Assembly: GCA_002633005.1 (NCBI GenBank)
Contig: NMRA01000011.1
Coordinates: forward strand, 713,931-777,930
Origin: Phoronis australis
Taxonomy: Eukaryota > Animalia > Phoronida
Length of the DNA: 64,000 nucleotides
Direction: 5' to 3'
The first letter of the stretch is position 1, and every line of letters begins with the position of its first letter. Position numbers and translations under genes: made by a program. Of the stretch, positions 2,869-27,643 are shown in pieces. The notes beneath the pieces were generated by a model, which saw only the letters and a program-made list of their open reading frames with translations, searched no databases and was not told where the DNA came from.

Positions 2869-4156
2869 CAAGGAGTGTAGTAGTCTAGGAGAGTTCACTT
2901 GTGAGTTCGCTGTTACCGCTACTACTAGCGCCGCCAAGTGGTGAACAAGCTACGGTCAACCAGGAAGCGCCAAAACAATGGGGACGGACGCATTTTGCAG
3001 TGCGATAAATTGCATGAATTGATCCACGAAAACCCCANNNNNNNNNNNNNNNNNNNNNNNNNNNNNNNNNNNNNNNNNNNNNNNNNNNNNNNNNNNNNNN
3101 NNNNNNNNNNNNNNNNNNNNNNNNNNNNNNNNNNNNNNNNNNNNNNNNNNNNNNNNNNNNNNNNNNNNNNNNNNNNNNNNNNNNNNNNNNNNNNNNNNNN
3201 NNNNNNNNNNNNNNNNNNNNNNNNNNNNNNNNNNNNNNNNNNNNNNNNNNNNNNNNNNNNNNNNNNNNNNNNNNNNNNNNNNNNNNNNNNNNNNNNNNNN
3301 NNNNNNNNNNNNNNNNNNNNNNNNNNNNNNNNNNNNNNNNNNNNNNNNNNNNNNNNNNNNNNNNNNNNNNNNNNNNNNNNNNNNNNNNNNNNNNNNNNNN
3401 NNNNNNNNNNNNNNNNNNNNNNNNNNNNNNNNNNNNNNNNNNNNNNNNNNNNNNNNNNNNNNNNNNNNNNNNNNNNNNNNNNNNNNNNNNNNNNNNNNNN
3501 NNNNNNNNNNNNNNNNNNNNNNNNNNNNNNNNNNNNNNNNNNNNNNNNNNNNNNNNNNNNNNNNNNNNNNNNNNNNNNNNNNNNNNNNNNNNNNNNNNNN
3601 NNNNNNNNNNNNNNNNNNNNNNNNNNNNNNNNNNNNNNNNNNNNNNNNNNNNNNNNNNNNNNNNNNNNNNNNNNNNNNNNNNNNNNNNNNNNNNNNNNNN
3701 NNNNNNNNNNNNNNNNNNNNNNNNNNNNNNNNNNNNNNNNNNNNNNNNNNNNNNNNNCAAATTTTATTGTCCATGGAGGTATGAACTGTTATAAGGAAAG
3801 ATAATTTGCCTTGTTAAGAACTCAAACATGAAACAAAACCGTGATAGATTTTGAAGGGAGCTTCAAAAGAATAAAAACAAATACACTTTAATATTGATTA
3901 AAATACACATTTTCATTCTCATTCGATTATAAGTGGATGTTAGTTTACGTATTCTAACCATTTTCAATCACACAGTAATTTTATTGCACGTTGAACGTCA
4001 TTTAAGTATGAATTCATCAGTGTTTACATTGTTCGGACTGCGCTCCTAAGTAAGTATTGATTATTCACCGCTTGGAGCGCTAGTGTTTCGACCGGTAACC
4101 ATTGCGGCGAATGGTAAAATGGCGGAGTGAACTCTCCTATACTCGTACACTCCTTG
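2869..4156. mobile_element. Non-autonomous P-superfamily-like TIR element nested in the Kolobok
   Basis: ~31-bp TIRs (CAAGGAGTGTAG...GGAGAGTTCACT / AGTGAACTCTCC...TACACTCCTTG) and a perfect 7-bp TSD GTGCAAT (2862-2868, 4157-4163). Spans the N gap. Confidence 0.75.
3038..3757. other. Assembly gap (720 N)
   Basis: Run of N. Confidence 1.
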
Positions 4157-5993
4157 GTGCAATCAAGTAGCGTTTTTCATATTGTCGGAATAAGAAATTT
4201 TAGAGTGAAATGTCGGGTCACCAGGGATACTTGTTTGAGCCGAGAAAACACAAAGTGATAACCAGTCATCGTCATCGTCAGAGGTGCCATTTGCTAAAAA
4301 TTTGAGACGTCTTTCGGGACATGATGACAGCTTCGCAGCACCAAGGTTGTTCTAAAATTCGGTTTGCTGGTATAGAAATACTAAAAACTTGTAACAAAAT
4401 GAAACACGTTCCGATAATTTATATAACATGTACGCAACGCAGGTAGCGTCAGCGACGAACACTTGATAAAAGAATCGGCGGAAAAGAAACTGGTAAAGGT
4501 CAGGTGACGTAATCGCAAAAAGCCGACTCAAGAGAACACATCACAATTTTAGCAGCAGCCGAAGAACGATCGCTAACTTTTCCAACACCGGTAAATACAG
4601 AAGTTAGTTTACTCTAGAAACCTGGTTCCTATGTTTACTCGAGGATGAGATTAGTTTTAATGACATTAATTTTGAGTCTGATTTTATTTGTCCATTTTTT
4701 ACCCATATCACCTCAAACCTGCAGACATATATTTAGGATACAGCTTTGGGCCAAGTCTTGGGTAACCCGGCGATGGTATGCGATGACCATCCCTTTAGAA
4801 GACACCTGTTTCGAAGAGATTGAGCAACCAAGTGCCATACAAAAAGGCATAGAGAACCTATTACAGCACTGTGGCAAACAATAAAAAATAAGGACGATTG
4901 ATACAACGATAATTTACGATGTCACCTCTTCAAAATATGACATAAGCAATGAATGTGTAAAGCAGCCGATACCCCGCCTTCACGTCACTGACACATCAGC
5001 CAATCAGCGATCGCTTTCAGAAGTCAGTGTTTTAACCATGAATACAAATCGGCTTTTGTTTGGCACACAAGTCAGGCAAAGGTGCGTTTTATTTGTATGT
5101 TAGAACCGATTAACTGCAACATTATTATGAATACAGTCCCCTTCTAAGTCGTTGTTTACGCGAGTTTGGTTCACGTTAGATATCATAAAACTTATTTTTT
5201 TGACCGTGGCAACTGCCACGAACAAATGTGCTGCAAAAATGGCGGCCTACAAATCAAAAACGCGAGTATGTATAATTATTGGTAAAAAGTCTATGTATAT
5301 TTACTGTCATGACTTATTCGGCCTAGTTTCTAGTTTTTTATATTGATAAAAGTTCATTTGAGAGTCATTTAATTATCAAATGTGACTAGTTTATCAAAAA
5401 ATATGCAATTTCCACTTTCCGATTATTTTTTGTTTTACCCACGTATGACGTCAGTTGTTTAGGGAAGCCCTTTTGACGGATATTCCGATGTTTATACTAT
5501 CAATTAACGGCGTATCAATTCTTAATTTACAGCCCGCATTTAGAGAAACCGTTCAAGTTCCAGAAAATGTTATGTTGTTTTTCCCTCCGTCTATCACATG
5601 TATCCAGGGTCCCAATTAAACTGAGGAATATAACTGATTAAAGCGGTTTAGCCCGAAATTCAGTCACAAACCCATTTTTGATTACCACTTAGTCCACTCG
5701 CAAAAATATTCCGAGGTAAAAACGGATGTGATTTTTACAGTTAAAAAATAAACCCTTTGTTAGGCTTGGCACAAGGCTCGGCTGAAGTTGAGACCGTGTG
5801 CCGTGTTTTATTACAAAATCCCTTCTTTACTTGATTAAGGGACAAAATGTATTGATTTTATAGCAGTAAGTTACCTACATCCAAATTTAATAATTGCGAC
5901 ATAAACTTAACTACAATTTACCTCCCCTTTTGATGGTTTTCGTGGGTGTACGTTATATCTCCTTACTTCGTGGTAAGATCTCTATTAGAAGCC

Positions 5994-8900
5994 ATGGACA
6001 CAGGTGAGTATGCAGGTATGTCAGAGTTAGAGAAGATCAAAGCTTTTGAGGTAAGCATATCAACGCTTCATAGTTCAGCGATTATTCCTGCACATAAACG
6101 GATAAGGAAGTACATACACTCCTCGAAAGAACACGAATCAGTCAGTTGAAAAATGATTTATCTCAATGCACCCAGCGGCAAAGCAAGACGACTAGGGCTG
6201 AATTTCTGTCGCTTACCAAGTCCAACGACGAGCTCAAAAAAGATCTACGGCGCGTCAAAAGAATGAGGAACTACTACGAAGAACAGAACGCCTCTTCGCG
6301 ACAGGAGAACGACATCCTTCAGCAACGCCTTGTTTTGCAAACCAGGGACGGATTCGACCAGGAACGTGCTGCTGAGCATGCTCAGTGGAAGGAGAAGGAG
6401 CATGCCCTTCACAAAAACATCAAACAAGTAAGCAACAAAATAAATTGAAAAAGGCTAACTATGACATTTGTTCCAAGAAAATTGCTGAACTGCAGGATAA
6501 CATCAAATATTGGCAACTTGCCGCCACTCAGTACGAATACCAAATACGCACTTTCATCAGAGACCGGCAATTCATCACCTTCAAGGACGGACGGTACAGC
6601 GATAAGATCAGACTGCTGTACATGGAGCTCATGTCCATGCAAGTCAACTCGCGCAACGTTGAAAGAATCATCAAGTGAGTTTACAATTGTTACATTTCGT
6701 TAGAACTTTTAGAAAGCAATTTTGAAATTATTAGTTCGTGCACATAAAACCGGAAATACCTGATTAAGCTACTTATGTTTTTTAACGACAATATAGCAGG
6801 ACTTTCCAGTACTTGATGAAATTGACATTTACTTTATGTTATGACATACACACAAAATTTCTGTATAAATAACTATGCAATGATAATAAGTTGATTGTTT
6901 ACTCTTACAGAACAGTACTGAGCACGGTGACAGAGAAGACGTCCGTCGGACTACCTCGAGAGTCCTTCGCTCGCTACATGCTTCTTGAAGCGCTGTCCTT
7001 GGCTATTCCGCATCTTCAGATAGAGCTCCAGTCAGAGCAGTCATCCTTGGTGTATATGGAACCTCTAAGATTGGTCATCACTATGGCCAGGAAGAGATAA
7101 CCAGGTTATCTGTTCCTGCTGTGGCACTGGAGCCACATCGTTTTCGAACGGTCAGACGATGAGGCTATGACTGCGTGACATGGGCTGTTGTGATGCTGAA
7201 GCTTACCTTGCGAACACCCAAGGCATGCTCACCCAGGTGTCTCGTGAAGCTGCTCTCACCGACTCGTTCCTTAAGAAGACAGTGGCAAAGATGTACAAAA
7301 CCATGACTGACATGGCCAGCACCTGCAAGAAACTGAACGGTTTTTTACACAAGTGGAGAGCTGAACTCATTCCTGATGTTGTATCGCATTGGGATGAGTT
7401 GAGTGATCCTGAGCAACAAAAACTACTATCTATGAACAATTTCTGGTGTTGCCTTCACTATCTTGTAGGTTTGGCTTATCAAGCTTATAAGACCTTGGCT
7501 TCCTGGGAGAACATCTTGCATAGTGGTAGGACAACTGGGTCACCTTCACTCCCAGGGGGATACGCCAAACCCGGAAAACAACTCGTCTAGTGCGCGCCGT
7601 TTGCAAAGCTGTCCAGGACCGTGGCTGTGAAAGATCTGGCAAGCTGGTACAGTTTAGGGAGTACATCCAGGAGGAAACTTTGGTTGATACGGTTCCTCTG
7701 AAGCCCTTCAAAGGTAACCGTTTCAACATATTGTTTGAGAATGTGGCTGGCACTTTTTACCTTTTTGAAGACCTTAAAATCTTCTTCGAAAGGGTGAAAA
7801 GTGAAAACCGCGTCCTTGGAGCTGTGAATGCAGACTTAAATGTGGATTTTTTCAGGAGTGGCACACAAGCTCTCGGGTTGATTTCCAAAATTGTCACTGA
7901 GCTCCTGCGGAGGAAGTTGGAGATGGCAAACCATATAAACGAAGTTACACCAGTGCTCCAGCAGTTGAATGAAAGGTTTCGGGTGTGCTCTTTGGATGTT
8001 TCGAGTCTGAGACAACCAAGAACCAGTTGATCAACCAGCGCCTTCTGAAGGACCACTTGGATGGAAGGAAATTTGCTGTTTGGACGGAAGAGATGCAGAT
8101 GGAGACCACGTCTGTGCCGATCACCAACAAGGGCCCTGAGCAGATGTTCGGTCAGTTTGATCGAATAATCTGGCTTAAGCCTTCAGCTACAACCCTTGTT
8201 GTAGAAGCCATCGCCATGTAGAACAAGAATAAGCCGATTTACTGGATAGACAGTGAGTCTCCAGACATGAGAGGTTTATATTGAGCATGCACGGTTTTCC
8301 GTGAGGCGTAAGAAGGAAGAGTTTAAGGTACAGTGTTAACTTCTGAAAAATAAAATGAAAAGTGTCTATTAATTGTTAGCTTCTCAAACCTCCAAAATGC
8401 ACTTAAACCACTTCATAAGTAGGATATCCAGTCTATTCGGATAATGTTAGTACATTCAAATGGAGTATTTAGAAATAATGAATTTGGGGATATGAAGTTA
8501 AGCATAATCATAATCATGCATGGTTTAATAATGTTAGGAATATTTTGTAATTGGACATTAAGTGAAGCAGACACAATAATTTTACAAGCTGTAATTGATT
8601 GACTTAATTTAAATTGACATATTTTCAGACGCGAAAACCTGCAGCACAGCGTGAACGTCAACTCTGCCTTGCCTCAAAGCGACAGAAAGCTGCAGACAGG
8701 AAACTGGCAGACAGAGTTAGGAGAGAGAAGATGACGAATGAACTGCAGTAGGTCGGCAGCCTCATAACATCACCCGAGTCTCATGATACCCATCTGCAGG
8801 CAGTTACTGATGCAAGGAAAGGTAAGGTTGTAGTGATAAATATTAAGTCTAGAAAGTTTGTGATACAAGAGAATAATGCAAATGGTATTTGGAATCTATT

Positions 8901-9606
8901 TGCCAGTGGTAAGAAGATGTCCCTTGATGTATTGGTATCCAATCCGAAATGTGCAATACGTGAAACTCTAGATGAATTTGGTAGCAGTGCAACATCTACT
9001 TATTTAGCTACCACAGATTCATCGGTAAATTCTGATATTACTGCCTTAAAACTTCCAATTGCAGGAGATGGTTCTTAAGGAAAAAGAAAAGCTGTCGTCA
9101 TCCAAACGCCACTGTCCCAAGCAACTTGATGTTCCGTGTGTGAACGAGCCCTCAGATCCCCTGGGGAAACGTGTTAACCATCTGTGTGTTGATAGTGACG
9201 GTGAGAAATGGTATCGTGGTGTCATCACTACTATGTCTGAAAGGCGATGTAAAACGATGTACACTATACGGTACGATTGTGATCCAGAATCACGTACACA
9301 CTTCCGCTGCTTGAAGATCTGGAGAAGGGGGATCTAGAACTCATTCCACTGGATCCTAAGTGGTTGGTGGGGAAGAGAGTCGACCACCGGTTCAAATGTG
9401 CAGAAGATGGTGAGGAGTACTGGTATACTGGGAAAGTCATCTCGTACGTCAAGGACTAGGAAACTCACGTGATAGAATACGAGACTGAGGAGAATGGTGA
9501 GAATGACGATGAGGATGAAGAGCTAGAAGTGTATGAGGAACCTCTCCTGCAGGACTACACAAGTGGTGATATTAGAATTTTGTACCTTTCTGTACAAATT
9601 CTCTGA
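5994..9606 (+). pseudogene. Intron-containing DDE/CxxH (hAT-clade-like) transposase pseudogene with C-terminal tandem Spin/Ssty repeats, copy 1
   Basis: Predicted exons ~5994-6674, 6911-8327 and 8629-9606 with GT-AG introns. Coiled-coil N-terminus; LGVYGTSKIGHHY (probable first Asp read as Tyr); TMTDMAST; NNFWCCLH; GNRFNILF; PITNKGPEQMFGQFDR; two GKRVxH...WYxGxV/I...LLxDxxxGDxxI repeats at ~9155-9590. Multiple stops and frameshifts. Confidence 0.75.
7088..7118. repeat. 31-bp palindromic insertion with 7-bp TSD (transposon footprint)
   Basis: CAGGAAGAGATAACC-A-GGTTATCTGTTCCTG between CTATGGC and CTGTGGC. Absent at the equivalent site of copy 2 (~13676-13683). Confidence 0.85.
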
Positions 9607-10324
9607 CAATAAGGGCCTTGTAAATGCGCTAATAAAGCAATGCTGGTTTTGTTTTTGAAGTTCAAATTGAGTATAAGTCCAAACGTTTATGTACACTGAG
9701 CATCACTGGACTCGACCTAAGGTAATTTCAATTCCATCAAGAAATTCAGTAAAGTTTTATTTTGTGAGTTAAAATGTGACCAATGTAAGAGTAAGAATGT
9801 GAATGTCTTTTTCATAAGGTAATTAAGTTATTTGTAAATTTGTTTGTTGTGAGCTGTGTCAAGGAGAATGTAAACTTTTAAGAAGTATAAATTGTTAATG
9901 TTTGTTATTGTTTATTAGAATTTTATTTTTTATTAACTTACATGTTATTTAATGCTGATTGTTTACAGCTCGCAACATGCAATTTGTCTTGAAGTTTAAA
10001 ATAGTTTAAGATGCTCAAGNCTCTTGGGGGTTGAGATGATGATTAATGACGCTGGACGCCGAAGACTCTCCAACAGATATGGTGGGGAGGAATGCTGAAA
10101 GGCTTTGGAGTTGTCTCCCATTTAAACTTGATGGCAACGTCCAAGGAGAAGCTTGCACGCAACTAGGCGTTCCAGAGAGAGCGTCTGCATTCGTCGTCTT
10201 TGCGTATTCGAACACGCAAGTCGGCTATTCGTACAGTTCGTATCTTTGGTAAGTGTTTAGTGTTGTTCTCGTTAGTTCTTACCCTAGATCTTCTACCGAA
10301 GATACAAGCAAAACAAAGCACTGA

Positions 10325-11714
10325 GAAACATGGTGATTTTCTTTCCAAATCGAATATTTCCCAGTAGAGGAAAAAAGATCACGTCGCAAAGGATTGCAGT
10401 TTCAGGGAAGATGAACGCCACTTGTCAGAAGAAGGAACACATTAAGACCGTCTGTTTGGCAAAAGAGAAAAATACGCCAACATTTACTCGGGCATTTGGG
10501 TCTGCAGTCAGTAACATTACAGATCGCGATCCTATTCAAATACCATTGCGAATTAATGGAAGAGATTTGTTGTTCGAGGTCGACACGAGATCGGCAGATA
10601 ATTTCATATCAAAGCAGACTTGGGCAAATTTGGGAAAACCAACACTTAAAGCTAGTCACAGCAAATACTTTCAGAAGCGAATGGCCAGCCACTTCCAGTC
10701 ATAGGAATCTTCAAGGCTGAAGTTTGCATGGATTGTCAGCGTAAAAACACAGTGGATATTGTTGTCCGCGAAAATGTTTTAATCCTGCAGGTCATTCAGG
10801 GATACGCCAACTCAAGACAGACATTACTTCACTTTGCGGTTTGCAGTTAAAAGAGAAATTCAATGTTCTTCGCTAGCGAATAGAAGTAGATATAAGCCTC
10901 CAGAAAGGATGCGAGGAACATTTTAAAGAATTTCCTGATCTGCATAAGCCAGACCTTGGTTGTTTGAAGGATTTTGAACAAGAAGTTAAATTCAAGTCAA
11001 ACGCCGAGCCACAATTTTGCAAGCCTCGTACTGTACCACATGCATTGCTTGAGGACATTATGCTTATAAAGCAGGTATCAAGCGTGGAGTATGGGTGAAA
11101 TCTCAACTCAGCGATTATGGAACACCCGTTGTTCCTATACAGAAACCACATTTGCCTGGACAAAAGAAACGTACAGTGCGTGTTTGTGGTGATTATTCTG
11201 TTACCGTAAATTCACAGAGACACATCGACATCCGACACCTCTTATTGAGGACCTGATGAGAAAACTGAGTGGTAACCATTTCTTTACAAAATTGATTTGT
11301 ATGATGCTTATAACCGGATTAAATTAGTTCCTGAAAGACAAAGACGACTAGCGCTATCTACTCATCAAGGGGTTCGTCTTCAAAAACGCCTAACCTTTGG
11401 CATTAGTTCTGCTTTGGGTATTTCCAAAAAATAATGGAAAAATTATCAGGTGATCTTCGAGGTGTTACATTTTACCTTGATGACATTTTAGTCAGTGGTA
11501 AGAATGCTATTGAACACCTAGGTCTCTTGCATGCATTATAGCAAAGATTGCAAGATAAAGGAATGCAATGCAGAAAAGAAAAGTGTTGTTTTGCACAACC
11601 AACAGTTGGATACATTGGACATTCACTGACGCAAAAGGACATATCAAAAGTTTCAAAGGTTGACGTTCTTTTCTTGGTTCGTTGCAATTCTACGGAAAGT
11701 TTATTAAAAACGTT
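10325..11714 (+). mobile_element. Decayed Ty3/Gypsy gag-pol fragment, copy 2 (truncated before RNase H)
   Basis: LLFEVDTRS protease and YLDDI RT motif; near-identical to 181-1563. Confidence 0.9.
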
Positions 11715-12567
11715 GCTTAAGTCGTTGTTTACGCGAGTTTGGTTCACGTTAGATATCATACAACTTATTTTTTTGATCGTGGCAACTGCCACGAACAAAT
11801 GTGCTGCAAAAATGGCAGCCTACAAATCAAAAACGCGAGTATGTATAATTATTGGTAAAAAGTCTATGTATATTTACTGTCAGGCCTTATTCGGCCTAGT
11901 TTGTTATTTATATTGATATAAGCTCATTTTAGAGTCATTTAATTATCAAATGTGACTAGTTTATCAAAATAAAAATTATGCAATTTCCACTTTCCGATTA
12001 TTTTTTGTTTTACTCACGTATGACGTCAGTTGTTTGGGGAAGCCCTTTTGACGGATATTCCGATGTTTATACTACCAATTAACGGCGTATCAATTCTTAA
12101 TTTACTGCTCGCATTTAGAGAAACCGTTCAAGTTCCAGAAAATGTTATGTTGTTTTTCCCTCCGTCTATCACATGTATCCAGGGTCCCGAATAAACTGAG
12201 AAATATAACTGATTAGAGCGGTTTAGCCCAAAATTCAGTCACAAACCCATTTTTGATTACCAATTAGTCCACTCGCAAAAATATTCCGAGGTAAAACCGG
12301 ATGTGATTTTCACACTTAAAAATAAACCCTTTGTTAGGCTTGGCACAAGGCTCGGCTGAAATTGAGACCGTGTGCCGTGTTTTATTACAAAATCCCTTCT
12401 TTACCTGATTAAAGGACAAAATGGATTGATTTTCTGGCAGTAAGTAACCTACAACCAAATTTAATAATTGCGACATAAACTTAACTACAATTGACCTCCC
12501 CTTTTGATGGTTTTCGTGGGTGTACGTTATATCTCCTTACTTCATGGTAAGATCTCTGTTAGAAGCC

Positions 12568-15500
12568 ATGGACACAGGTGAGTGTGCAGGTACGTCAGAG
12601 TTGGAGAAGATCAAAGCTTTTGAGGTAAGCATATCAACGCTTGAAAGTTCAGCGATTATTTCTGCACATAAACGGATAAGGAAGTACATACACTCCTCGA
12701 AAGAACACGAATCAGTCAGTTGAAAAATGCTTTATCTCAATGCACCCAGCGGCAAAGCAAGACGACTACGGCTGAACTTCTGTCGCTTACCAAGTCCAAC
12801 GACGAACTCAAAATAGATCTACGGCGCGTCAAAAGAATGAAGGACTACTACGAAAAACAGACCGCCTCTTCGCGACAGGAGAACGACATCCTTCAGCAAC
12901 GCCTTGTTGTTTTGCAAACCAGGAATGGATTCGACCAGGAACGTGCTGCCGAGCGTGCTCAGTGGAAGGAGAAGGAGCATGCCCTTCACAAAAAAAGATC
13001 AAACACGTAAGCAACAAAATAAATTACCAATTGACAAAGGCTAACATTGACATTTGTTCCAAGAAAATTGCTGAAGTGCAGGGTAACATCAAATATTGGC
13101 AACTTGCCGCCACTCAGTACGAATACCAAATAAGCACTTTCATCAGAGACCGGCAATTCGCCACCTTCAAGGACGGACGCAACAGCGATGAGATCAGACT
13201 GCTGTACATGGAGCTCATGTCCATGCAAGTCAGCTCGCGCAATGTTGAAAGAATCATCAAGTGATATTACAATTGTTACATTTCGTTAGAACTTTTAGAA
13301 AGCAATTTTGAAATTATTAGTTCATGCATATATAAATGGAAACACCTGATTGAGCTACTTTTGTTATATGAACGATAATATAGCAGTACTCTCCTGTACT
13401 TGATGAAATTGACGTTTACTTTACGTTTATGACATACACACAAAATTTGTGTATAAATAACTATGCAATGATAATAAGTTGATTGTTTACTCTTACAGAA
13501 CAGTACTGAGCAGGTTGACAGAGGAGACGTCCGTCAGACTAGCTCGAGAGTCCTTCGCTCGCTACATGCTTCTTGAAGCGCTGCCCTGGGCTATTCAGCA
13601 TCCCCAGATAGAGCTCCAGTCAGAGCAGCCTAATCTCACCCTTGGTGTATATGGGACCTCTACGATTGGTCATCACTATGGCACTGGAGCCATATCGTTT
13701 TCGAACGGTCAGACGCTGATGCTAGGACTGCGTGACATGGGCTGCGGTGATGCTGAAGCTTACCTTGCGACCATCCAAGGCATGCTCACCGTGGTGTCTC
13801 GTGAAGCTGCTCTCACCGACTCGTTCCTTAAGAAGAGAGTGGCAAAGATGTACTACACCATGACTGACCAGGCCAGCACCTGCAAGAAACTGAACGGTTT
13901 GTTACACAAGTGGAGAGCTGAACTCATTCCTATGTTGTATCGCATTGGGATGAGTTGAGTGATCCTGAGCAACAAAAACTACTATCTATGAACAATTTCT
14001 GGTGTTGCCTTCACTTGTAGGTTTGGCTGATCAAGCTTATAAGACCTTGGCTTCCTGGGAGAACATCATGCATGGTGGTAGGACAACTGGGTTACCTTCA
14101 CTCCCAGGGGGATACGCCAAACCTGGAGAACAACTCGTCTAGTGGGCGCCGTTTGCAAAGCTGTCCAGGACCATGGCTGTGAAAGATCTGGCAAGCCGGT
14201 ACAGTTTAGGGAGTACATCCAGGAGGAAAGTTTGGTTGATACGGTTCCTCTGAAGCCCTTCAAAGGTAACCGTTTCAACATTTTGTTTGAGAATGTGGCT
14301 GGAACTTTTTACCTTTTTGAAGACCTTAAAATCGTCTTCGAAAGGGTGGAAAGTGAAAACCGCGTCCTTGGGGCTGTGAATGCAGACTTAAATGTGGATT
14401 TTTTTTTCAGTTGTGGCACACAAGCTCTCGGGTTGATTTCCAAAATTGTCACTGAGCCCCTGTGGGGGAAGTTGGAGATGGCGAGCCATATGAGCGAAGT
14501 TACACCAGTGCTCCAGCAGTTGAATGAAAGGTTTCGGGCGTGGTCTTTGGATGTTTCGAGTCTGCTCCGCGGTGAATTTCCCTTCCCTGAGACAACCAAG
14601 AACGATTATCTTCTGACGGCCCTTCTACGAGATGCCGAAAGCGATGAGCAAACCAAGCAACTGCTGGAGTTAATGTTCACCAGCTTCCAGTTGATCAACC
14701 AGCGCCCTCTGAAGGACCACTTGGATGGAGGGAAATTTGCTACTTGGACGGACGAGATGCGGATGGAGACCACGTCTGTGCCGATCACCAACAAGGCCCT
14801 GAGCAGATGTTCGGTCAGCTAGATCCAATAATCTCGCTTAAGCCTTAGCTACAACCCTTGCTGTAGAAGCCATCGCCATGCAGAACAAGAATAAGCCGAT
14901 TCACTGGATAGACAGTGAGTCTCCAGACATGAGAGGTTTATATTGAGCATGCACGGTTTTCCGTGAGGCGTCAGAAGGAAGAGTTTAAGGTATAGTGTTA
15001 ACTTCTGAAAAATAAAATGAAAAGTGTCTATTAATTGTTAACTTCTCAAACCTCCAAAATGCACTTAAACCACTTCATAAGTAGGATATCCAGTCTATTC
15101 GGATAATGTTAGTACATTCAAATGGAGTATTTAGAAATAATGAATTTGGGGATATGAAGTTAAGCATAATCATAATCATAATCATGCATGGTTTAATAAT
15201 TTTAGGAATATTTTGTAATTGGACATTAAGTGAAGCAGACACAATAATTTTACAAGCTGTAATTGAGTGACTTAATTTAAATTGACATATTTTCAGACGC
15301 GAAAACCTGCAGCACGGCGTGAACGTCAACTCTGCCTTGCCTCAAAGCGACAGAAAGCTGCAGACAGGAAACTGGCAGACAGAGTTAGGAGAGAGAAGAT
15401 GACGAATGAACTGCAGTAGGTCGGCAGCCTCATAACATCACCCGAGTCTGATGATACTCATCTGCAGGGAGTTACTGATGCAAGGAAAGGTAAGGTTGTA

Positions 15501-16275
15501 GTGATAAATATTAAGTCCAGAAAGTTTGTGATACAAGAGAATGATGCAAATGGTATTTTGAATCTATTTGCCAGTGGTAAGAAGATGTCCCTTGATGTAT
15601 TGGTATCCAATCCGAAATGTGCAATCCGTGAAGCTCTAGATGAATTTGATGGCAGTGCAACATCTACTTATTTAGCTACCACAGATTCATCGGTAAATTC
15701 TGATATTACTGCCATAAAACTTCCAAATGCAGGAGATGGTTCTTAAGGAAAAAGAAAAGCTGTCGTCATCCAAACGCCACTGTCCCAAGCAACTTGATGT
15801 TCCGTGTGTGAACGAGCCCTCAGATCCCCTGAGGAAACGTGTTAACCATCTGTGTGTTGATAGTGACGGTGAGAAATGGTATCGTGGTGTCATCACTACT
15901 ATGTCTGAAAGGCGATGTAAAACGATGTACACTATACGGTACGATTGTGATCCAGAATCAACGTACACATTTCCGCTGCTTGAAGATCTGAACAAGAGGG
16001 ATCTAGAGCTCATTCCACTGGATCCTAAGTGGTTAGTGGGGAAGATAGTCGACCACCGGTTCAAAAGTGCAGAAGATGGTGAGGAGTACCGGTATACTGG
16101 GAAAGTCATCTCCTACGTCAACGACTAGGAAACTCACGCGATAGAATATGAGACTGAGGAGAGTGGGGAGAATGACGATGAGGATGAAGAGCTAGAAGTG
16201 TATGAGGAACTTCTCCTACAGGACTACACAAGTGGTGATATTAGAATTTTGTACCTTTCTGTCCATATTCTCTGA
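12568..16275 (+). pseudogene. DDE/CxxH transposase-Spin/Ssty pseudogene, copy 2
   Basis: Predicted exons ~12568-13260, 13499-14989 and 15297-16275. Same motifs as copy 1 with a more complete catalytic region (ORFs 13479-13958, 14142-14822). Spin-like repeats at ~15823-16250. Confidence 0.75.
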
Positions 16276-18478
16276 CAATAAGGGCCTTGTAAATGCGCTA
16301 ATAAAGCAATGCTGGTTTTGTTTTTGAAGTTCAAATTTAGTTCAAGTCCAAACGTTTCTGTACACTGAGCATCACTGGACTCGACCCAAGGTAATTTCAA
16401 TTCCATCAACAAATTCAGTATAGTTTTATTTTGTGAGTGAAAATGTGACCATTGTAAGAGTAAGAATGTGAATGTCTTTTTCATAAGGTAATTAAGTTAT
16501 TTGTAAATTTGTTTGTTGTGAGCTGTGTCAAGGAGAATGTAAACTTTTAAGAAGTATAAATTGTTAATGTTTGTTATTGTTTATTAGAATTTTATTTTTT
16601 ATTAACTTACATGTTATTTAATGCTGATTGTTTACAGCTCGCAACATGCAATTTGTCTTGAAGTTTAAAATAGTTTAAGATGCTCAAGTTTTCCATATGT
16701 ACAGACCAACGCTGGACTCAAGTTAGAACAAATTTACATTTCATAGGCAAATTCAGTGTTGTTTCATGTGAGTGAAAATCTGACTAAGAATGTGAATGTC
16801 TTTTTCATAAGGTAAATAAGGTGCTTGTAAATACGTGTGCTGTGAACTGTGTGAAGGAGAACGTCAAGTAGCATAGGTAGTTCATTGTTAATGTTTGTTA
16901 TTGTCCATGGGAATTATAACTTAAGTTCAATTTCAATAATCTTAATTTATTTACAGCTAATCTATTGGTTAATTTGCTCATTATAAAACTAGTTTTCAGG
17001 TTTGTTTAATCAGTTTTCTAGCATAGGCACTATACTATTCATTCACAATTTAAGGTCATACCATGCTAATGAATGTTTATGTTACCGCATGTTTCCTCTT
17101 ACGTCATATTCACATCTTTTGTTTTTAATCTTTTTAGTAATTATAATTATCTCAGGCCCTAGATATCTATGTTCTATTCTGGGAGGGGGGTTGTTTATTT
17201 GGAAGGTGATTATTGTTTTTAAGATATCGTCGCTGAATACCAAACTCAAAACTCATTTACAACAGACACAGAACTTTACAAGTAACAAGTGAAAGCCATT
17301 GACAAAAACTGTATTATTATACAATGATAATGCCAGAAATATCAAAAACAATGAAAGATGGGAAAGCAGAACATTTGACTCAATATTCCGTCAACTGCAC
17401 CTCTTAGATTGTATTTATAACGCGAAACTAACAGTTTTCCTCGTATTGTGTTCGCTGAAGTGGGTAACAGTCTCCTTCATTAAATAATTACATAGATACT
17501 TTTGGTACTGCTTTCATAGATAAATCAATGGGTGTAAGGATAGATGAGTGTCGTACAAAAAAACAATTTTCTTTAAATCTTAAACGGTTTTTAAAATATG
17601 ACGTAAAACTTGAAAAATTAAGGAATTGCGATGCACTTTTCCAATCTTTGCAAGTTTGAGGTTTTTTTAAAAGTTAAAATTCATTATTTTTAAATCTTTC
17701 TAATCCGCAGCTAATTGTAATAATTTGTTATGCTCCACAGGTGACAGCTAATATACACAACAAGTTTCATCAATGTGACTGATCTACTTCAAGAGATACT
17801 GGTCCTTGAAGATGGTACCAGAACGCAAAATTGCGTCGTCACAAATGTGAATTTTTGCCATTCTTTATAATAAAAATATAACATCTCATGGTACAATCTT
17901 TGTTTTCTGTTGTTCACCTACATGAGAAGTACTTCCTATATAGTTTTAAGGTAATAATTACTTTTACTTTCTCTAATACAGGTGCTCAAACATGCTATTT
18001 TTGGGTCTCGAAATTTTCGAGGCTCATTTGCTGAATAAAGGGCCTTTTTTGAGGGTGGAAACTCAAAATATCTCGAAAAAGAGATAAGCAAATGGCAGGT
18101 GAAAAGCAATCATTTTAGAGTACCTTTGACTGATTCTGATTAAATTCGTATTGTGGTTTGCTCACCCTACTGACGGTGTATGAGAAGCAACACCTCGGCA
18201 TTGGTATTTATTCTGTAAACCAAGTCTGCCTGAGTGACACAGTGCTCACAACTCGCTTAAGTTATACCACCGAGGTTGTGAAATTTGAGTCTAATACTGG
18301 AATAAAACTTACTAAGAGATTGTTTATGTTCATCTAGTTTAAACACACCGGTTGGCCTCGTCCTTGGTTGAACCATGCCATGGAGAACTGCATGTTAGAT
18401 ACATGTACGTTCAGCGGACTACAATGTTAATGGAGACTGCATGCGAGAAATTATCCCAGCGTGCAGATTTCAATCACT

Positions 18479-20700
18479 ATGCTTTACTATTGTTGTGTGC
18501 CGGGATGCAAATCATCGGCATGCGGCCACAAGTTTCCAAAAGATACCAGATTACAAGAAGCATGGAGAGTTGCAGTCAAAAGAGTACACGAAGGCACGAA
18601 AAGTCTTTGGATGCCAAAGCCCCATGACCGCGCGTTTGCTCCAAATATTTCCAGGAGAGCGACTACATAAAGACGTTACTTGGTAAGGTTTTAGAAATTA
18701 GTTTTCAGTAACATCATCTATATCGTCCAAGAATATCATCGCTACCAGTTTATATCACTAAATGATTGGTTTTGTTCAGTGGAACCAACTGGATTCTTTT
18801 CAAAATCTTATCGGGGGCTCAGATGGTAGGTAAGTGCCTCCTGCATTAGTTCGTATTTGTCTCCCAATACCACAACAGAAAAGGTAACGGGAAGAATCCA
18901 AGGGCCAGTTTTTCACAACAGTTACTCTACAAGAAGATGCAATTTCCAACAAGATTCTAGATGGGTGAGTATATAATATCCCCGACTCTCCAAAAAAACA
19001 AGTAACCCCCCTAGCATTAGCTGATTAATTACCAAATTAACGTCAGTGAGGTTTTCGATACCTTCCTAACGTCGTTGACATTGTATTGGAATTAATACGG
19101 ACCCCTTGAATGAATTTATTTGTAGGAATGGACACATACTTTAAAAGGTGTCATTAAAACTGCACATTCTGAATCCACTTCACCCTGTTCATTATATTTT
19201 GATTAATTTAAATTTATTTATACCATATATCTATAAGGCTTGTGCATAAAGATTGGTAAAGGCTTTTTTGTCATCAAAGAGGTTGCTTTTATTTTGGGAG
19301 ACTAGAGGCTTTTGATTAGTTTCTACCCGTGAACATGAAGAAAAATGTCAGTAATAAAATAATCATGAGTGTAGCAAACGTTTATTGTGATACAAAAGCA
19401 CTGAATTGTTACCTGTGTTTTATTTTGGTAATATTTCTCCATAAATCCAATTACAGGTGAGAGAAACCGACTTAAACCAGATACAGTCCCATCTATTTTT
19501 CCTTTTCATAAAGCCAAATCTCCTTCAGCAATATCCCGAGATAACCCTATGGCAAAGCGAAGCCTTATGTCTGAGTGCGCCTTCGGACATCCCTGATTGT
19601 GGACAAGAGGTAGAAGCGAGTACTCATGACTGATTAATGCAAAATTGGGATTGCATGTACTTTTTTAGTGCCATACATACACTAAGGGGAATTCAACGAA
19701 AAGACAACATGATTACAATTATTACACTTCAATCTGAATAAATAATTTTTGCAATATCATTAAAAAATCAATTCATAAATTTTGTTCAACTCATATCTTC
19801 AACAGTGCCTAACATATCTTCTAGGTGATAACAGCCACTTCTAGTATTGAGAGAGTGACTGGTGAAGATGAGGACACTGGTCCACCAATGGACGAAGGTG
19901 TTCAGAGTGAAATCATCGCAACTTCTACCATTAAACAAAGTATTATGCTTCACACAAATGACCCAAAATCCGTAAAGTACTTGACCGGTTTTAATCACTT
20001 TCGCCATTTTATGCTTTTTTCAACTGCCTGGGTGAAGCAGCCCACAACTTAAATGTGACATGGAGCAGTCTGTCACAGGAAGACCAGTGTTTCCTAACGC
20101 TGATAAAGTTGCGTCAGGCATTTGATGATTTTTATCTTCCGTTGTTGTTTAAAGTTTCTGTGTCAGCTGTTTCAGAAAAAGTGAACACTTGGATAAATTT
20201 TATGTATTTCCAATTGAGTAATTGAATATTTGCCAGATAAGCGCATCGTTCAAAATTCCATGACAAAAAGTTTCAAGAAGCAATATCCAACAAGAGTGAT
20301 TCTAGATGCCATTGAGATACCAATAAATGGATGACCAGAGCGTCCCATTGTCTAGGTATAAAAACAAGAGCACGTTGAAAACCATCATAGGATGTAGCCC
20401 AAGAGGACTACTTACATTTGTCAGTGACTCCTATGGGGGAAGTGCAAGCGACCGTCAGATAATAGAGCGTTCAGATTTATGTTCAAAAGAATAAGTTGAA
20501 AGTGGCGACTGTATTATGGCAAACAGAGGTTTAATGATTCAAGATATAATGGTCAACAAGGAAGTATTGGTCAACACACCATCAATGCTTAAAGGAAGAA
20601 GCCAACTGGGTGCCATCACTGTCACCAAGGACCCACGAATTACCTCAGAAGCTGGTTCGTGTTGAGCGAGTCAATGGGTTAGGCAATACATTCAAAATTA
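18479..20700 (+). pseudogene. ISL2EU/Harbinger-group transposase pseudogene (THAP + HTH + DDE_Tnp_4-like)
   Basis: THAP exon MLYYCCVPGCKS...FPKD...W (18479-18682); exon 2 RLKPDTVPSIF (~19458); then FLTLIKLRQ, RVILDAIEIPI, GCSPRGLLTFVSDSYGGSASDRQIIERS, IMANRGLMIQD and VERVNGL. Frameshifted and 3'-truncated. Confidence 0.85.
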
Positions 20701-21679
20701 ATTTCTTTAGTTACAATGCACACCCAGATCGTTACACTGCCTTTACTCTGGCAAATGAACTCTGGTGACACGCACGTCTTCGCTCACTCACACACACGCA
20801 GACGAACTTCAAAACAAACGTCACGTGACAACAACATGTGTGTTCGTCCAGGAATTCTCTCGTGTTGCGGGGAACGATCTAGCGCAGATTTGTTGTGAAG
20901 TTAATCCCGACTCCACAAAAACTTAAAAATCTTGGGGACGCTATTTGGAAAACTTAAGGAGGACTTCAGGTAATTTGTTGAGTCGAAACTATATTTTTAT
21001 TCAAGGATTCAAGTTACCCTATCGACGATCGCGTGGTAGCGACGCATAAGTCGGCGAGTTTTCGCCCTGGTATTTCAGAACAATTTTCTGAAAAATGATC
21101 GTAATATAACAAAGAAGTTTGATAGCATGAACCACAATTTTGTAGCAAGTCCGTCATAGGTTACAGATGCGTCAAAGAGCGTAAATTTGATGAATCCTAG
21201 CTTAAGATTTTCACCCGTTCGGAGACGCTTTAAGCCATAATATGCGCCCCCCATTTTGAAACGAATTTTTCTAAGCGCCCTGGGGGCTTATTATGAAATT
21301 GTTAACTTGACCTCACGAGAGAAAGCGACTTACACTGTAGTAGACGTTTCCCGATGATACTTTCGCCAGGAACTGTTTAAAAGATATTTTGACGAGGTTT
21401 CGCGATTCATGCCTCTTTAAGAATATTGCTTTCCACTTTTTTAGCAATAAACAGTACCATTGTTTTTAACAATGTAGTTCATTTGAATAGATGTTCCTTA
21501 TTCAGATTGCCCAATCTTCAATGGTAACACCTGTACATTTGGTTCCTACAGTATGTACCACCAGAATCACATTTTAATTCAAACTACTGCGAATAACAAT
21601 GGTGTTCTATTCAGACCCCTATTCAATACACTTGTTTTCGGCCTTTTGTTGTTTGTCTGGAATCACGCGGTAATGCAAT

Positions 21680-21830
21680 ATGGCACGAAAAGGCAGATTC
21701 ATAAATCATTTGACGGGCTTACATGTGCGTGATTGAACTCGCGTTTCCTTATTTTACTAAGGCTTTGCCAGGACTATCTGGTTAGCCCAATACGTCTAAA
21801 ATAACAAAATTCCGTTGACGTTGGGCTTTA
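21680..21830 (+). repeat. ~150-bp dispersed repeat, second copy at ~35167-35317
   Basis: ATGGCACGAAAAGGCAG...GGCTTTAA in both places. The CTTTAA end resembles a TTAA-targeting transposon terminus. Confidence 0.75.
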
Positions 21831-22200
21831 AATACACTGATTATTATTTATTCCTGAGTGTTGTGCTACTGCTGTAATAGCATATTTTTATCATGCTAGC
21901 TACAAGGGCAGATCCAGGATTTTTAGTTAGGGGGAACCAGGGCAGAGTATTAGCCAGGAATTTTCCCGTCAAACATTCGCACCTCCGAATTGCCACATGG
22001 AATCTGGGACTTTTTGGGGGGGGCATGCCACTGAGTTATAGAGACATGGTTTACTTACACGTGGAGCTGTTTCTAATATAAGTTTACACAAAACTTACTT
22101 CTGACAATACGGTGGCCTGCATTTTGTCGGGATTTGGATCAGCGACTTTGCTAAACTCACATCCGTGATTGAATACATTGAACGCTCGTAGAAACGTTAA

Positions 22201-22797
22201 AGGAGAATGCCACCCGATTTAATTAGTCTTTTTTACCGTCTTAATCGGTTTATATCCACATCGCCTCTTATACGGTCGACCTCACCTTGCCGAGAGGTGA
22301 GAAGCGACGCAGCGACGTCAGTGGTTCGTCTGCAGAGTGAATGCCGCTATATTGCGGTGTAGGACTATCGGTTCCCGCTTGTCCGAACTATGAAGCTGCG
22401 AAGAAAGCGGGTATATCGTTTTTTTCGACTTCTTCGAGAGTCTGAAATGTTTAGGAAGTGGCTTGGGGTAGTGAAGAATGAAAGGTATGCTGTTAGTAGC
22501 AAGTATGAGGCCGTGAAACATCTCCGTGTCTGTGGCCGGCATTTCGTCAGTCGACAGTGATTTCTCTGACGAATTCCGGCTTACCAAAGACCTATACATA
22601 CGTTCCGTTGCCTATGCATGTTCACGGCACCTCTCTAGTATTTCTTGATCAGTGTATTCCGGTTCGAACTGATAGCCTGTGAAACCTAACGATCCGACCC
22701 GTGAAGTCTTCGTCGGATGAGCTCTTGACTAAGTCGGGATTGGCGGAAGGCGAGTTGCCATGTAGACGTTTATTATTCTGCCTTCTCTTTCAAAATG
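22201..22797 (-). mobile_element. Kolobok-like remnant truncated by the satellite element
   Basis: Begins TTAA|AGGAGAATGCC. Minus strand reads GYQFEPEYTDQEILER (~22630-22680), the YxFEP motif typical of Kolobok accessory ORF starts. Confidence 0.5.
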
Positions 22798-25276
22798 AAC
22801 TAGAAAGATTATTGTCAGGGCGTGCTTATTGCTGGAATTGCTTTGGAAAGTTATTGACAACAACCCGTTTACAAATATGAAAAATAATTCTATAAAACTA
22901 TAGGAGAAATACATGTTGATAATTTGATGACCTTTGCACTAATTGACCCTTGCCAATGCATTACGAGCCCAGATTAGGGAAGGAATGTAAACTCGATGAA
23001 AAGTGTGGTTAGTGCTAAGAATCAGAGATGTATTACTTTAAGCACTGAATGAATTGGTCAATATTTGAGAAGAAAAATGCACCTAATGACCCCATGTTTG
23101 CACCAAATGACCTGGGACTTTATAATTGAAACTTAATTGCATTTATTAAACAGATATGCAATTTTGAAGTCTCTAGTTCAAAAATTTAGTTTGCACTCTA
23201 TGACCTTTAACCTATTTTTTCTGATTGGGTGGGCCTATTGGTTAGTAAAGTAGGGTGTTCGATTGGCATGTTGATTTACACCAGTGTGCTGAAATTGAAA
23301 GTAATTCCTTGAAAATTTAGGAGATATAACATTTTGGACGTTAGCTGACCTCTGCACTAATTGACCCTATCCCGTGCATTATAAGCGTCTTTAGAATTAT
23401 TGCAAAGCCCGTGAAAATTTTATATAAAGCTGAGAACATTTGTTGTCTAACGGTTGAAACATCATATTTGGTGAATAAAAAGGGCAAATTTTCAGAAGAA
23501 AAATGGACCTAATGTCCCCATGGTTACACTAAATGACCTGAAACTTTGAATTTCAAATTGAATTCGACGTACCAATCAGACTTCTGAATTTGAAGTGTGT
23601 AGCTCAAAATTTTAGTTTGCGCCTAATGACCTTTGACCTGTTTTATCTGATTGGGTGATTCGATTACTTAGAAAAGTATTTTTTTAAATTGCCTTATTGA
23701 CTTAAACCTGTGCACTGAATTTGAAAAGAATAGCTTTAAAAATGAAGAAAAAGCATTTTGAAAATTACATGACCTTTGCACCAAATGACCTCTTCTGGTA
23801 CATTATGGAATATGATTATATAATGAATCAAAATTCATGTACTGCATAAAATCATATTTTAAATTTGAAGAACATACCTTTAACCTTTTTGGAGGAGTGT
23901 CAAAGTTGGTCGGAAGAATAAGAACTAGAAAGATTATAGTCACAGCGTGACAATAATGGGCTCTGAGCGTGCGTATTAAAGGAATTCTTATGGGAAGTTA
24001 CTGACAGCAACCTGTTTACCAATATGAAAAAGCATTCTTTAAAATTGTAGGAGAAATTATATGTTAATATTTCGATGACCTTTCCTCTAATTGACCTCTT
24101 TCAGTGCATTAGGAGCCCCGATGAAGGAATACTTGTAAACTCGATTAAAAGTGTGGTTAATGCCAAGAATCACAAATATTTACTTTAAGCACTTCAGAAT
24201 ACAACATGAATGAATTGGTCAAACTTTGCGAAGAAAAATTCTCCTAATGATCCCATGGGTACACCAAAGGACCTGATAATTTAGAATTCAAACTCAATCG
24301 CATTTACTAAACAGATATGTAATTTTGAAGTCTATAGCTCAATATTTAAATTTGCACTCAATAACCTTCGACCTATTTTTCTGATTGGTTAGGCCTATTG
24401 CGTAGTAAAGTAAGGCGTTCGATCAGCATGTTGACTTACACCAGAAAGCTGAACTTGAAAAGAATTCGTTGAAAAATATAGGATATAACATTTTGAACGT
24501 TAGATGACCTTTGCACTAACTGACCCTATCCGGAGCATTATAAGCGTGTTTAGGAGAATTATTTCATTCAAAGCCCGTGAAAATTGTGTTTAATGCTGAG
24601 AATCACAATTGTCTAACGGCTGATACATCAGAATACTTGGTGAATGAAAAGGGCAAATTTCTTTAACAAAAATGCATCTAATGACCCAAGGTTGCATTAA
24701 ATGACCTGAAACTTTGTATTTCGAATTACATTAGACGTACCACTCAGACTTGTGAATTTGAAGTGTCTAGCTCAAAATTCTAGTTTGCATTCAATGACCT
24801 TTGACCTATTTTCTCTAATTGGACGACCCTATTGCTTAGTAAAGTAGGGTATTTTATTGGCATGTAGCTTTACACCAATGTGCTGGAATTGAAGAGAATT
24901 CCTTGAAAAATGTAGGAGAAATAACCTTTTCAAAAGTAGATGACCTTTGCACTAGTTGACCCTATCCAGTGCATTACAAGCCCTTTTAGTAGAACTATTG
25001 CAAAGTCCGTGAAAAGAATATTTAATGCTGAGAATCACATTTGTTTAACGGCTGACACATCAGAATACTTGGTGGATGAAAAGGACAAATTTTCAGAAGA
25101 AAAATGCACCTAATGACCCCATGCTTGCACTAAAGGACCTGAAACTTTGTATTTGGAATTGAATTAGATTACCAATCAGACTTGTGAATTTCAAGTGACT
25201 AGCTCAAAATTTTAGTTTGCACCTAATGACCTTTGACCTGTTTTATCTGATTGGTTAGGCCTATTGCGAAGTAAAG
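22798..25276. repeat. Two adjacent Helentron-like non-autonomous elements with ~420-435 bp tandem subunits
   Basis: Heads AACTAGAAAGATTA at 22798 and 23923; a third isolated head at ~52868 shows the hairpin ATTATTGTCA...TGACAATAAT. Subunit marker TGACCTTTGCACTAATTGACCC recurs at ~22928, 23346, 23770, 24076, 24505 and 24941. Confidence 0.7.
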
Positions 25277-25679
25277 TAGGAGCTACATCGCCTCTGGTTC
25301 GGGCCAACAGAGGCGATGGTCAACCATCGCCTCTGTTGGCCCGAACCAGAGGCGATGCAGCTCGTATAGGCGCTCTATACGCTGGAAGCTTTTCGGCGAA
25401 TTATGCCTCGCACCGACTAAACCATCAAAGTCACGTTGTTATAAATACCTTTTGCGCATAGAGGAACACCTTAGGAGGTTGTCGATATGTTTAATTTCTT
25501 CCAACACGAACAAATACTCCCGCTATCAAACTTTTTCTTCCAGCAGTCCCTATTTCAGTTCCCAAAATCGTGAACTCAACATTTTCACCAATGAGATAAA
25601 TATAACTAGAGTTGACATCACGTGGTTTTCGTTGTGCGAAGTGGTCCGCCATCTTGCTGATGGGCGATAGTGGGGCGTC

Positions 25680-27620
25680 ATGCCCGTTTATTGTGTAGCA
25701 TTTAACTGCAAAAATGCCAGGACAGAAGAGTCTAAGCAACGAAATATCACATTTCATAGGTAATAGTGCCATGGTGCTTGTTATTGTTAGTGTTTGGTGT
25801 GCGCCACTGTGAATGAATGTTCACAAAATTGATTTATAATGATGAACGATCTCAAGTTGCACTGGGCAGAAGTTGTGTATGCGGACCCTGAGACTGTCAG
25901 ATGTTCTTTGAATTCGTTCTAAAATCACATTTCACAAGTAATTATGTCATCGTTAATGTTATGAAGACATAGCCAACTTAGCAAACCTCGGCGTGGGTCT
26001 GTTTGACTTAATATTTCCTAGCATGGATCCTGGTGACCTGGTGGGTGTGTAAAGCAGGGACTCCTAACCCCCTCGTCTGGCCTTATCACTCATTTGTTAT
26101 GTCTTTTGTGTCTTTTCTATTTTTTCATATTTCTTGTGGTAGGTTTCCCAAGGATGAATCACTTCGAAAACAGTGGGCTCGCGCTGAACGGAGAAGCAAA
26201 CCTGATGGCAGCGTGTGGGAACCAAGCTTGTACAGATTTTTGTGCTCCCAACACTTTTGTGATTCTGACTTTGATCGCACTGGGTGTACTGTTAGAATTC
26301 GACCTAATGCTGTACCTAAAGTCTTTTGATTTTCCTGCACATCTACAGGTAAGTAGTGTAAGACTATGTGTTCGAATTTTGCTACAATATGTCATCTGTC
26401 GCTCTTACATTATATTTTATATTGGTGCTGTTGCTTTCACTTAGTTTAAATCACATATTCCCATGAAGGGTCATTTGCCATAGTCATATGGCGAGACTGC
26501 TCATAACCTACAGGGGAGGATCCAGGATTTTGAGTTGGGGGGCAGGGCAGATTGTTAGCTAGGATATTGCCCCTTAAACATTTGCACCCCCGAACTGCCA
26601 CATGGAATCTGGGAAAATTTTAGGGGGGCCGTGACCCCCTTGGCCCCCCTCTAAATCCGCCACTGACCTAGGTCCTGTCTTGAATATTGCAGAACAAGGA
26701 GTCACTTCCTAGATTGACCAGAAATAGTCAACAATCATCCTCTGACATCTCAGCTTACACTGGCCCTGCTACAGATAGTGATGACAGCACTGTACTTGTG
26801 TCACAGCTACGTATGACCTATAGTTCTTTTCTAGAAGCTGTTTAATTGCTTATGAACAGACCACATTATCAAAGCCAATAGTTACTGAAGTGCTGAGGTA
26901 AGACCATCAACTAAGAAAGTGTAGCAGCTTAGTTTTTATCTCCAACTAAGCGAATCAATACACACACACGCACTCGCCTTGGTGGAAAAATTGGTATTAG
27001 TGTGTTATGTCCAACTGTTTGATTTTCGTCCAAAGAGGTATTGTAAACAACAGTACATTGTGGTTGACTTGTCACCCTCTCTTTTAGGATCATGCCTACC
27101 AGCTGCCTACTGCTATAGAACTGAAGAGACGTCTTGACTTAGCCTATGAGAGCCGAGAAATGCTTCAGCACGACGTCAGGAATGTAAGGGCTCGAGAGAA
27201 ACGAGCTAAACACAACCTGGAGGCTTTGTTGAATAATCTGAAGGAGCAAAGGCTTGTTAATGATGAACTGGTTGCCAAACTTGACATCATTCTCAGGTTA
27301 GCATTGCTTTTCAGGATATTACAATTCAATGACAAGTTATCTCATATCTTCAACATATGTTACCAGAACGTATCTTTGTTGTCAAAGAGCCGTTTACCAG
27401 ATGTTTAAGTCATATTAACCACTTGACCTCTAAAAGTCTTTGTCATTACAATTTTCTTCATTGTAGACATTCCGGTTGACTTGTTCAGCAGGCCAGTCCA
27501 GATGTATTCTGATGAACAACGAGACTTTGCCTTGACACTCTATTTCTATAGCCCTAAGGCATACGAATATTTAAGAAATGAAACAAACATAATTTCTATC
27601 CTTGCATATGCTACTTCGGC
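25680..27620 (+). pseudogene. THAP9/P-element transposase N-terminal half
   Basis: Exon 1 MPVYCVAFNCKN...ITFH (25680-25759); exon 2 RFPKD...W...LCSQHF...RPNAVP (26143-26348, with a frameshift); coiled-coil exon DHAY... (~27089-27296); YSDEQRDFALTLYFYSPKAYEYLR. Catalytic domain missing. Confidence 0.88.
26511..26665. mobile_element. MITE with 5-bp TSD
   Basis: CAGGGGAGGATCCAG...CTAAATCCGCCACTG flanked by ACCTA/ACCTA. Related partial copy at ~21903-22033. Confidence 0.65.
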
Positions 27621-27643
27621 GGCAGCAGTGTTTCAGGGAAATT

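Follow-up and report, generated by a model that had tools for sequence, protein, structure and literature searches.

Broken copies of a hAT-like transposase gene with a predicted Spindlin-type Tudor pair in a Phoronis australis contig

The locus

The DNA analysed here (the window) is a 64,000-nucleotide stretch of a Phoronis australis contig, and it holds two broken copies of a gene whose DDE transposase core is followed, in the last exon, by two Tudor repeats (Table 1). An earlier note, made from the sequence alone, had recognised xGTS, MTD, CCLH and PEQM motifs and two last-exon repeats in both copies, and all of these were found in place: GVYGTS at 7049 in copy 1 and 13644 in copy 2, MTD at 7303 and 13860, CCLH at 7447 and 14003, and PEQM at 8135 and 14798. 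A homologue, P0044, matches copy 2 at 13052-13261 by tblastn. Two GT-AG introns bring the window gene into the frame of its homologues, including at the junction of the DDE exon with the Tudor exon, a join that the earlier note had marked for checking and that is predicted to be in frame. RNA reads at the locus, taken from three runs carrying one species label, are sparse (almost absent from one run), extend over the introns and run on downstream; none shows a splice joint, and the splicing is therefore described here as predicted. Across 11600-20700, which takes in the element and its flank, RNA coverage in two runs is low, one-sided and unspliced. This pattern fits a long transcript of the host passing through the region, probably from the minus strand provided that the library was stranded in the usual way.

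Table 1. Coordinates of the transposase gene copies and associated features, numbered from the first letter of the window
Feature	Position	Strand	Remarks
Copy 1, same broken gene	5994..9606	+	predicted introns 6675-6910 and 8328-8628; deletion in core
Copy 1 repeats 1 / 2	about 9161-9345 / about 9364-9582	+	
Broken LTR-retroelement pol remnant	10146..11714 (= 1-1562)	+	duplicated along with the transposase; outside the transposase gene
Copy 2 5' coding segment with coiled-coil region and candidate start	12568..13260	+	frameshifted; upstream part from frames only
Copy 2 predicted intron 1, GT..AG, 238 nt	13261..13498	+	excision gives ERIIK-TVL, homologue frame
Copy 2 exon for the DDE core (RNase H-type, with CxxH and helical insertion)	13499..14989	+	several frameshifts
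Copy 2 predicted intron 2, GT..AG, 307 nt, separating the DDE and Tudor exons	14990..15296	+	excision gives KEEFK-TRKP, homologue frame
Copy 2 last exon, coding for a long helix, a linker domain and the Tudor pair	15297..16275	+	
Copy 2 Spindlin-type repeat 1 (predicted)	about 15829..16014	+	cage positions C/Y/Y/Y
Copy 2 Spindlin-type repeat 2 (predicted), acidic insert	about 16033..16251	+	cage F/Y/Y/Y; neighbouring Trp changed to Arg at 16090; TAG at 16126
Two degenerate 3' repeats, about 200 nt each	16393..16918	+	75% alike; self-BLAST
Transposon end TAGGGTG.., then CTGACGG	18134..18169	-	candidate right terminus; 1.9 kb downstream of gene

In both copies the first catalytic Asp is replaced by Tyr (13650 in copy 2), and TAG stops stand at equivalent sites in the last exon (8749 in copy 1, 15417 in copy 2) and inside repeat 2 (9457 and 16126); because these changes are common to the copies, the gene was dead before they split. 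The last exon of copy 2 also changes frame near 15720. With three inactivating lesions and the neighbouring retroelement remnant in common, the copies represent a single dead insertion that was either duplicated or assembled twice. Two independent insertions are ruled out by the same common lesions and common neighbour. The copies of the remnant, which matches RVT_1 (E 2e-7) and, weakly, aspartyl proteases, are about 95% identical (94.7% by one measure; divergence of 4.7% by another), while the window copies diverge by 1-7%, depending on the segment. As between haplotypes and a true duplication, the signs are mixed: the junction of the duplicated unit is a single N at 10020 and other individuals show mosaic, allele-like patterns, but the contig depth of the unique flanks (about 25) equals that of either copy, and a second allele did not appear. 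The segment 1563-5144 occurs only ahead of copy 1.

The degenerate repeats 3' of copy 2 are possibly subterminal. Elsewhere in the window, a 31-nt inverted repeat (2869-4156) flanks the assembly gap at 3038-3757 and perhaps delimits a small element. Very high-copy repeats occupy 20720-22700, where contig depth reaches up to 300,000 and a common boundary lies at 22197, and an array of degenerate repeats of about 430 nt, 65-85% alike, extends over 22820-25280 and ends at a 44-bp hairpin (25277-25366). Three long inverted-repeat pairs bound 25322-32775 (264 nt, 89%; 7.4 kb), 33138-36558 (about 400 nt, 81%; 3.4 kb) and 56228-63771 (about 95 nt, 85%; 7.5 kb), and are read as the ends of further, putative DNA transposons.

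The transposase core

A search with the core query returned five of 1302 candidate proteins at 40-49% identity, and a wider search, in which 7990 proteins were scored, gave 23 relatives that include gar, sturgeon and Clytia proteins; related tails are known from Mytilus and Apostichopus. Two homologues, P0005 and P0006, carry the core and the same Tudor pair in a single reading frame. The structural model of a further homologue, P0008 (pLDDT 79.5), superposes on Hermes with Z 16.7 and rmsd 3.6 over 342 residues, as compared with Z 10.3 for ISCth4; the Hermes/hAT structures together score Z 13.8-16.7 over about 340 residues. The proposal of the earlier note that a cut-and-paste transposase is fused to spindlin-type repeats is borne out by these single-frame proteins and by the Hermes match.

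The catalytic set is conserved among 41 homologous rows wherever these are covered, with D in 36 of 36, D in 39 of 39, C in 38 of 40, H in 39 of 40 and E in 35 of 36, and the CxxH motif reads CCLH in both window copies. Both the CxxH and the Trp features are common to hAT and MULE transposases in the available text of PMC5225508. Canonical hAT features, as given in the accessible part of PMC4763223, include an 8-bp target site duplication, an N-terminal BED finger and a C-terminal hAT domain. No BED finger was found by pattern in the 14 long homologues, nor by Pfam, and the homologues gave no Pfam match to the hAT dimerisation domain; the structural match of the P0008 model extends to Hermes residue 609. 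An Arg followed by Phe (36 of 41) or Ile (5 of 41) stands at the motif position that we take to be the equivalent of Hermes W319. The PDB sequence search returned no transposase with a convincing score, the best being of the Mutator family (E 0.035). We infer that the enzyme acts like a hAT element. It probably belongs to the hATw subgroup of Repbase/Dfam, a subgroup with a 7-bp duplication.

Element ends and mobility

The family was represented by 49 loci among 433 candidate stretches, and the 14 with long matches were examined for ends. One of them, L002, holds at 1931-9763 a whole 7.8-kb element with 15-bp terminal inverted repeats (TIRs) and the 7-bp duplication CTGAAGG on both sides, inside which P0005 is encoded as one unbroken frame; an inverted match as long as these TIRs arose in 1 of 300 shuffles. 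TIRs with a target site duplication (TSD) were found in this 1 of the 14 loci, most loci being too short to hold both ends, and many broken copies occur among the 49. The family is mobile, as an intact relative with TIRs and a TSD exists, and the search for such a copy that the earlier note had recommended is answered by L002. Another transposase-like remnant, recognised by sequence motifs only, lies upstream of the family member at about 7000-8600 of L003.

No TIR pair was found in the 64-kb window. The transposon end that terminates at 18169 has the TAGGG start of the L002 element and is followed by CTGACGG, which shares six of seven letters with the L002 target duplication. DNA as well as RNA reads show a high-copy family that stops at 18169/18170; no matching left end was found in the window. 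This candidate end likely belongs to the window transposase element.

Fold of the Tudor repeats

By predicted fold, the window repeats are Spindlin-type Tudor repeats. The tail of copy 2, with X at the stop, finds Spindlin-1 as its best PDB sequence match (E 3.8e-5), spindlins making up 16 of 17 matches, and a profile of 12 homologous tails matches Spindlin-1 with E 8e-20, the next family being SETDB1 (E 6e-4). The model of the copy-2 tail (pLDDT 86.6) consists of two barrels and ranks Spindlin-4 first among 48,161 chains (Z 9.2, rmsd 2.2, 66 residues; repeat 1 on domain 2), with a plant Tudor domain as runner-up (Z 8.4, inside the tie margin). Spindlins also rank first in a Foldseek search with this model (E 1e-7), and the Atlas lead for the Spindlin-type fold scores 0.88, all Atlas leads being under 0.9. 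The closest agreement is that of the last repeat of the P0008 model with SPIN1 residues 127-194, that is, domain 2 (Z 11.1, rmsd 1.7-1.9, 67 residues). The packing of the tandem pair differs from that of SPIN1 domains 1-2, with an rmsd of 13-16 across the pair.

At the level of sequence profiles, the window repeats gave no match to Pfam Spin-Ssty (PF02513) and only a match to Agenet, below its cut-off. Pair-type homologues reach at most 24.3 against the PF02513 gathering cut-off of 25, which is passed by four single-repeat tail fragments. The Pfam and structure checks suggested in the earlier note thus divide: SPIN1 domain 2 and the Hermes fold are matched, but the window repeats lack the Pfam Spin-Ssty match.

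The aromatic cage

The methyl-lysine cage of SPIN1 is formed by F141, W151, Y170 and Y177 (PMC3967050, in its available text). For comparison with this cage, 93 full-length matches were reduced to 68 by an 80% identity filter and, minus nine spindlins, to a set of 59 pair tails, many of which are fragments without a visible core. In an ungapped register, the repeat-2 positions corresponding to these four residues are aromatic, in the same order, in 47, 40, 58 and 31 of the 59 tails; the cage is complete in 22, has at least three aromatic positions in 39, and falls short of at least one aromatic in 37. Repeat 1 has a complete cage in only six of 59. Among the 13 single-repeat tails, seven have a complete cage and all have aromatic first and third positions.

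Repeat 2 of the window has the cage F/Y/Y/Y in both copies in the ungapped register, a Tyr taking the position of W151. The earlier note had held that the aromatic cage was kept in copy 1 and had lost its Trp to Arg in copy 2; the aromatic positions do stand, in both copies, but the substitution falls on a Trp beside the cage in this register. In the gapped MAFFT register, that Trp sits on W151, the second position is aromatic in 58 of 59 tails, 26 tails have a complete cage, and that of copy 2 is lost. The most invariant residues of repeat 2 include some outside the cage, namely the flanking Trp (aromatic in 58 of 59) and Y185 (57 of 59). This partial conservation of the cage supports a putative reader role but does not single out a ligand.

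Evolution of the repeats

The tail profile matched 580 of 1.84 billion representatives. Of the best 150 among these 580, 37 run into transposase sequence (Mutator-like in one case), 11 are spindlins, which first appear at rank 73, 21 are proteins with several Tudor domains, and the remaining 81 consist mostly of tail-only fragments. On a tree of the cores (quick search, midpoint root), all 18 pair-type rows and four truncated rows form one clade (SH-aLRT 99) with ten single-repeat rows outside it, so the tandem pair likely arose once within the family. Its derivation as a collinear pair from SPIN1 domains 1 and 2 was set aside: hhalign places the two repeats nearer to each other (90) and to SPIN1 domain 2 (79 and 70) than to domain 1 (51 and 41). 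The AU test does not reject a grouping of repeat 1 with domain 1 (p 0.41).

The single-repeat tails are nearest to vertebrate spindlins. Their mean score on the SPIN domain-2 profile is 36 bits, higher than those of the other SPIN domains themselves (28 for domain 1), and the pair repeats reach 13-16. A repeat tree was built from 87 rows and 63 columns, for which 24 of the 59 pairs, 6 of the 9 spindlins and 10 of the 21 outgroup rows were chosen by hand; in it, all spindlin repeats form a clade (87/91) within a group that also contains ten single-repeat tails (97/93). The suggestion in the earlier note of a mobile source for the spindlin domain is therefore favoured by the best tree and the profile scores, through the single-repeat relatives and not the tandem-pair clade; a separate transposon clade is not rejected by the AU test (p=0.17), and the nesting of spindlins in the best tree is not significant. 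The full proposition, that vertebrate spindlins were domesticated from a transposon Tudor tail and that a transposon lineage picks its insertion sites with a histone-mark reader of its own, is advanced tentatively, as one we would sooner doubt than assert.

Several homologues bear on the wider history of the module. P0190, from Mytilus coruscus, is a Mutator-like transposase (PF20700, E 9e-60) that ends in two near-identical Spindlin-type repeats; since it carries the same repeat, the module would move between transposon superfamilies, unless P0190 is a gene-model fusion. The gar and sturgeon homologues P0008, P0200, P0201 and P0202 are annotated as 'SPIN4 protein', 'Spindlin-W' or uncharacterised, and as the core tree does not pair the two gar proteins as closest kin, several lineages or domestications are indicated. 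Two members are strongly diverged: P0122, whose cluster is named from Apostichopus, lacks most of the core, and P0147 has a degenerate one; both keep the Tudor pair and may be domesticated readers.

Possible roles of the repeats in transposition

The explanation that best accounts for the locus, and that we hold to be moderately probable, is that the window contains two broken copies of one hAT-like DNA-transposon insertion, whose Spindlin-type tandem pair likely binds methylated histone tails and would in this way tether the transposase to chromatin bearing the marks. With a tail shaped like Spindlin, and with an intact relative that bears the hallmarks of a mobile element, the enzyme is likely to be a reader of chromatin marks. 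The transposase would bind TIRs that start with TAGGG, excise in the manner of Hermes and insert with a 7-bp stagger. Repeat 2, with its aromatic cage and acidic surface, would dock on a methyl-lysine such as H3K4me3, and this docking would bias insertion or access. The pair itself would go back to one event, in which a single repeat was duplicated within the transposon family.

The strongest competing account, on balance unlikely, grants the repeats a binding function unconnected with target choice: they would read methyl marks or bind host partners in anti-silencing, through arginine-methylated proteins of the piRNA pathway, or in regulation of the transposase. The variable cage would fit different ligands, and spindlins have partners other than histones as well (complexes with SPINDOC and HBx appear among the structure titles). 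Moreover, the flanks of the ends (CTGAAGG, CTGACGG, CCATAGG-like) look like a sequence preference, so that the target may already be determined by DNA sequence. Against this account, the structure matched most closely is domain 2 of SPIN, which binds H3K4me3, and the tail lies on the catalytic polypeptide, as do the reader domains of Gypsy integrases in the accessible text of PMC12477816.

It is less probable still that the repeats form a structural or oligomerisation module of Tudor/SH3-like fold that reads no methyl mark. The invariance of non-cage residues (the flanking Trp and Y185) and the 37 of 59 tails deficient in a cage aromatic agree with such a module, whereas the 39 of 59 pair tails with at least three aromatic cage positions and the aromatic first and third positions in all 13 single-repeat tails speak against it. 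It is very improbable that the locus derives from a host gene, domesticated and perhaps since turned pseudogene. The gene has introns, no TIR pair was found in the window, some fish homologues are annotated as genes and the diverged P0122 and P0147 may be domesticated, but the intact, TIR- and TSD-bounded L002 element contradicts the claim for the family, and the many broken copies among 49 loci, the conserved catalytic set and the transposon end downstream of the gene speak against it.

Comparison with known systems

The family is like Hermes and other hAT transposases (PDB 6dwz, 4d1q, 8sjd, 8edg, 2bw3) in its core fold with a helical insertion, its D-D-CxxH-E set and the short TIRs of L002. 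It is unlike them in its 7-bp rather than 8-bp duplication, the lack of a Pfam match to the BED finger or hAT domain, the long N-terminal coiled coil, the F/I at the W319-like position, and the C-terminal helix, linker domain and Tudor repeats. With the hATw subgroup it would share the 7-bp duplication, the hAT-like fold and animal hosts, and the family may well be catalogued there. A definition of hATw is absent from the available portions of PMC4455052 and PMC12905397. Literature listings and the openings of abstracts yielded no mention of a Spindlin-type domain on a transposase. The fusion is real and its proposed mechanism plausible, while the copy in the window is dead.

The repeats resemble those of Spindlin-1 to -4 (PDB 4h75, 4mzg, 4uy4) in fold (Z 9-11 at an rmsd of about 2), in the pattern of their sequence and in cage positions. 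Unlike the spindlins, which are free three-repeat proteins, two repeats are here borne on a transposase, with a short linker, other packing and an acidic insert; both are nearer to domain 2 than to domain 1, and those of the window fall below Pfam detection. A chromatin reader of vertebrates may thus have its source in this family. The window adds the tandem-pair clade and the repeat phylogeny, and the useful material, the window copy being dead, is the intact L002 element and the fish homologues.

Reader-guided targeting is established for retroelement integrases. Reader-bearing examples are the chromoviruses and Ectocarpus Gypsy-10, the latter with a Tudor domain; PMC12477816 (2025) calls this brown-algal Gypsy the first reported transposable element with such a domain. 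The present family is like these in placing a chromatin-reader fold at the C-terminus of an inserting enzyme; those integrases belong to LTR retroelements, whereas here a DNA transposase carries a putative Spindlin-type reader. A widespread cut-and-paste family with such a reader built in would make the chromatin choice of DNA transposons testable through one small domain.
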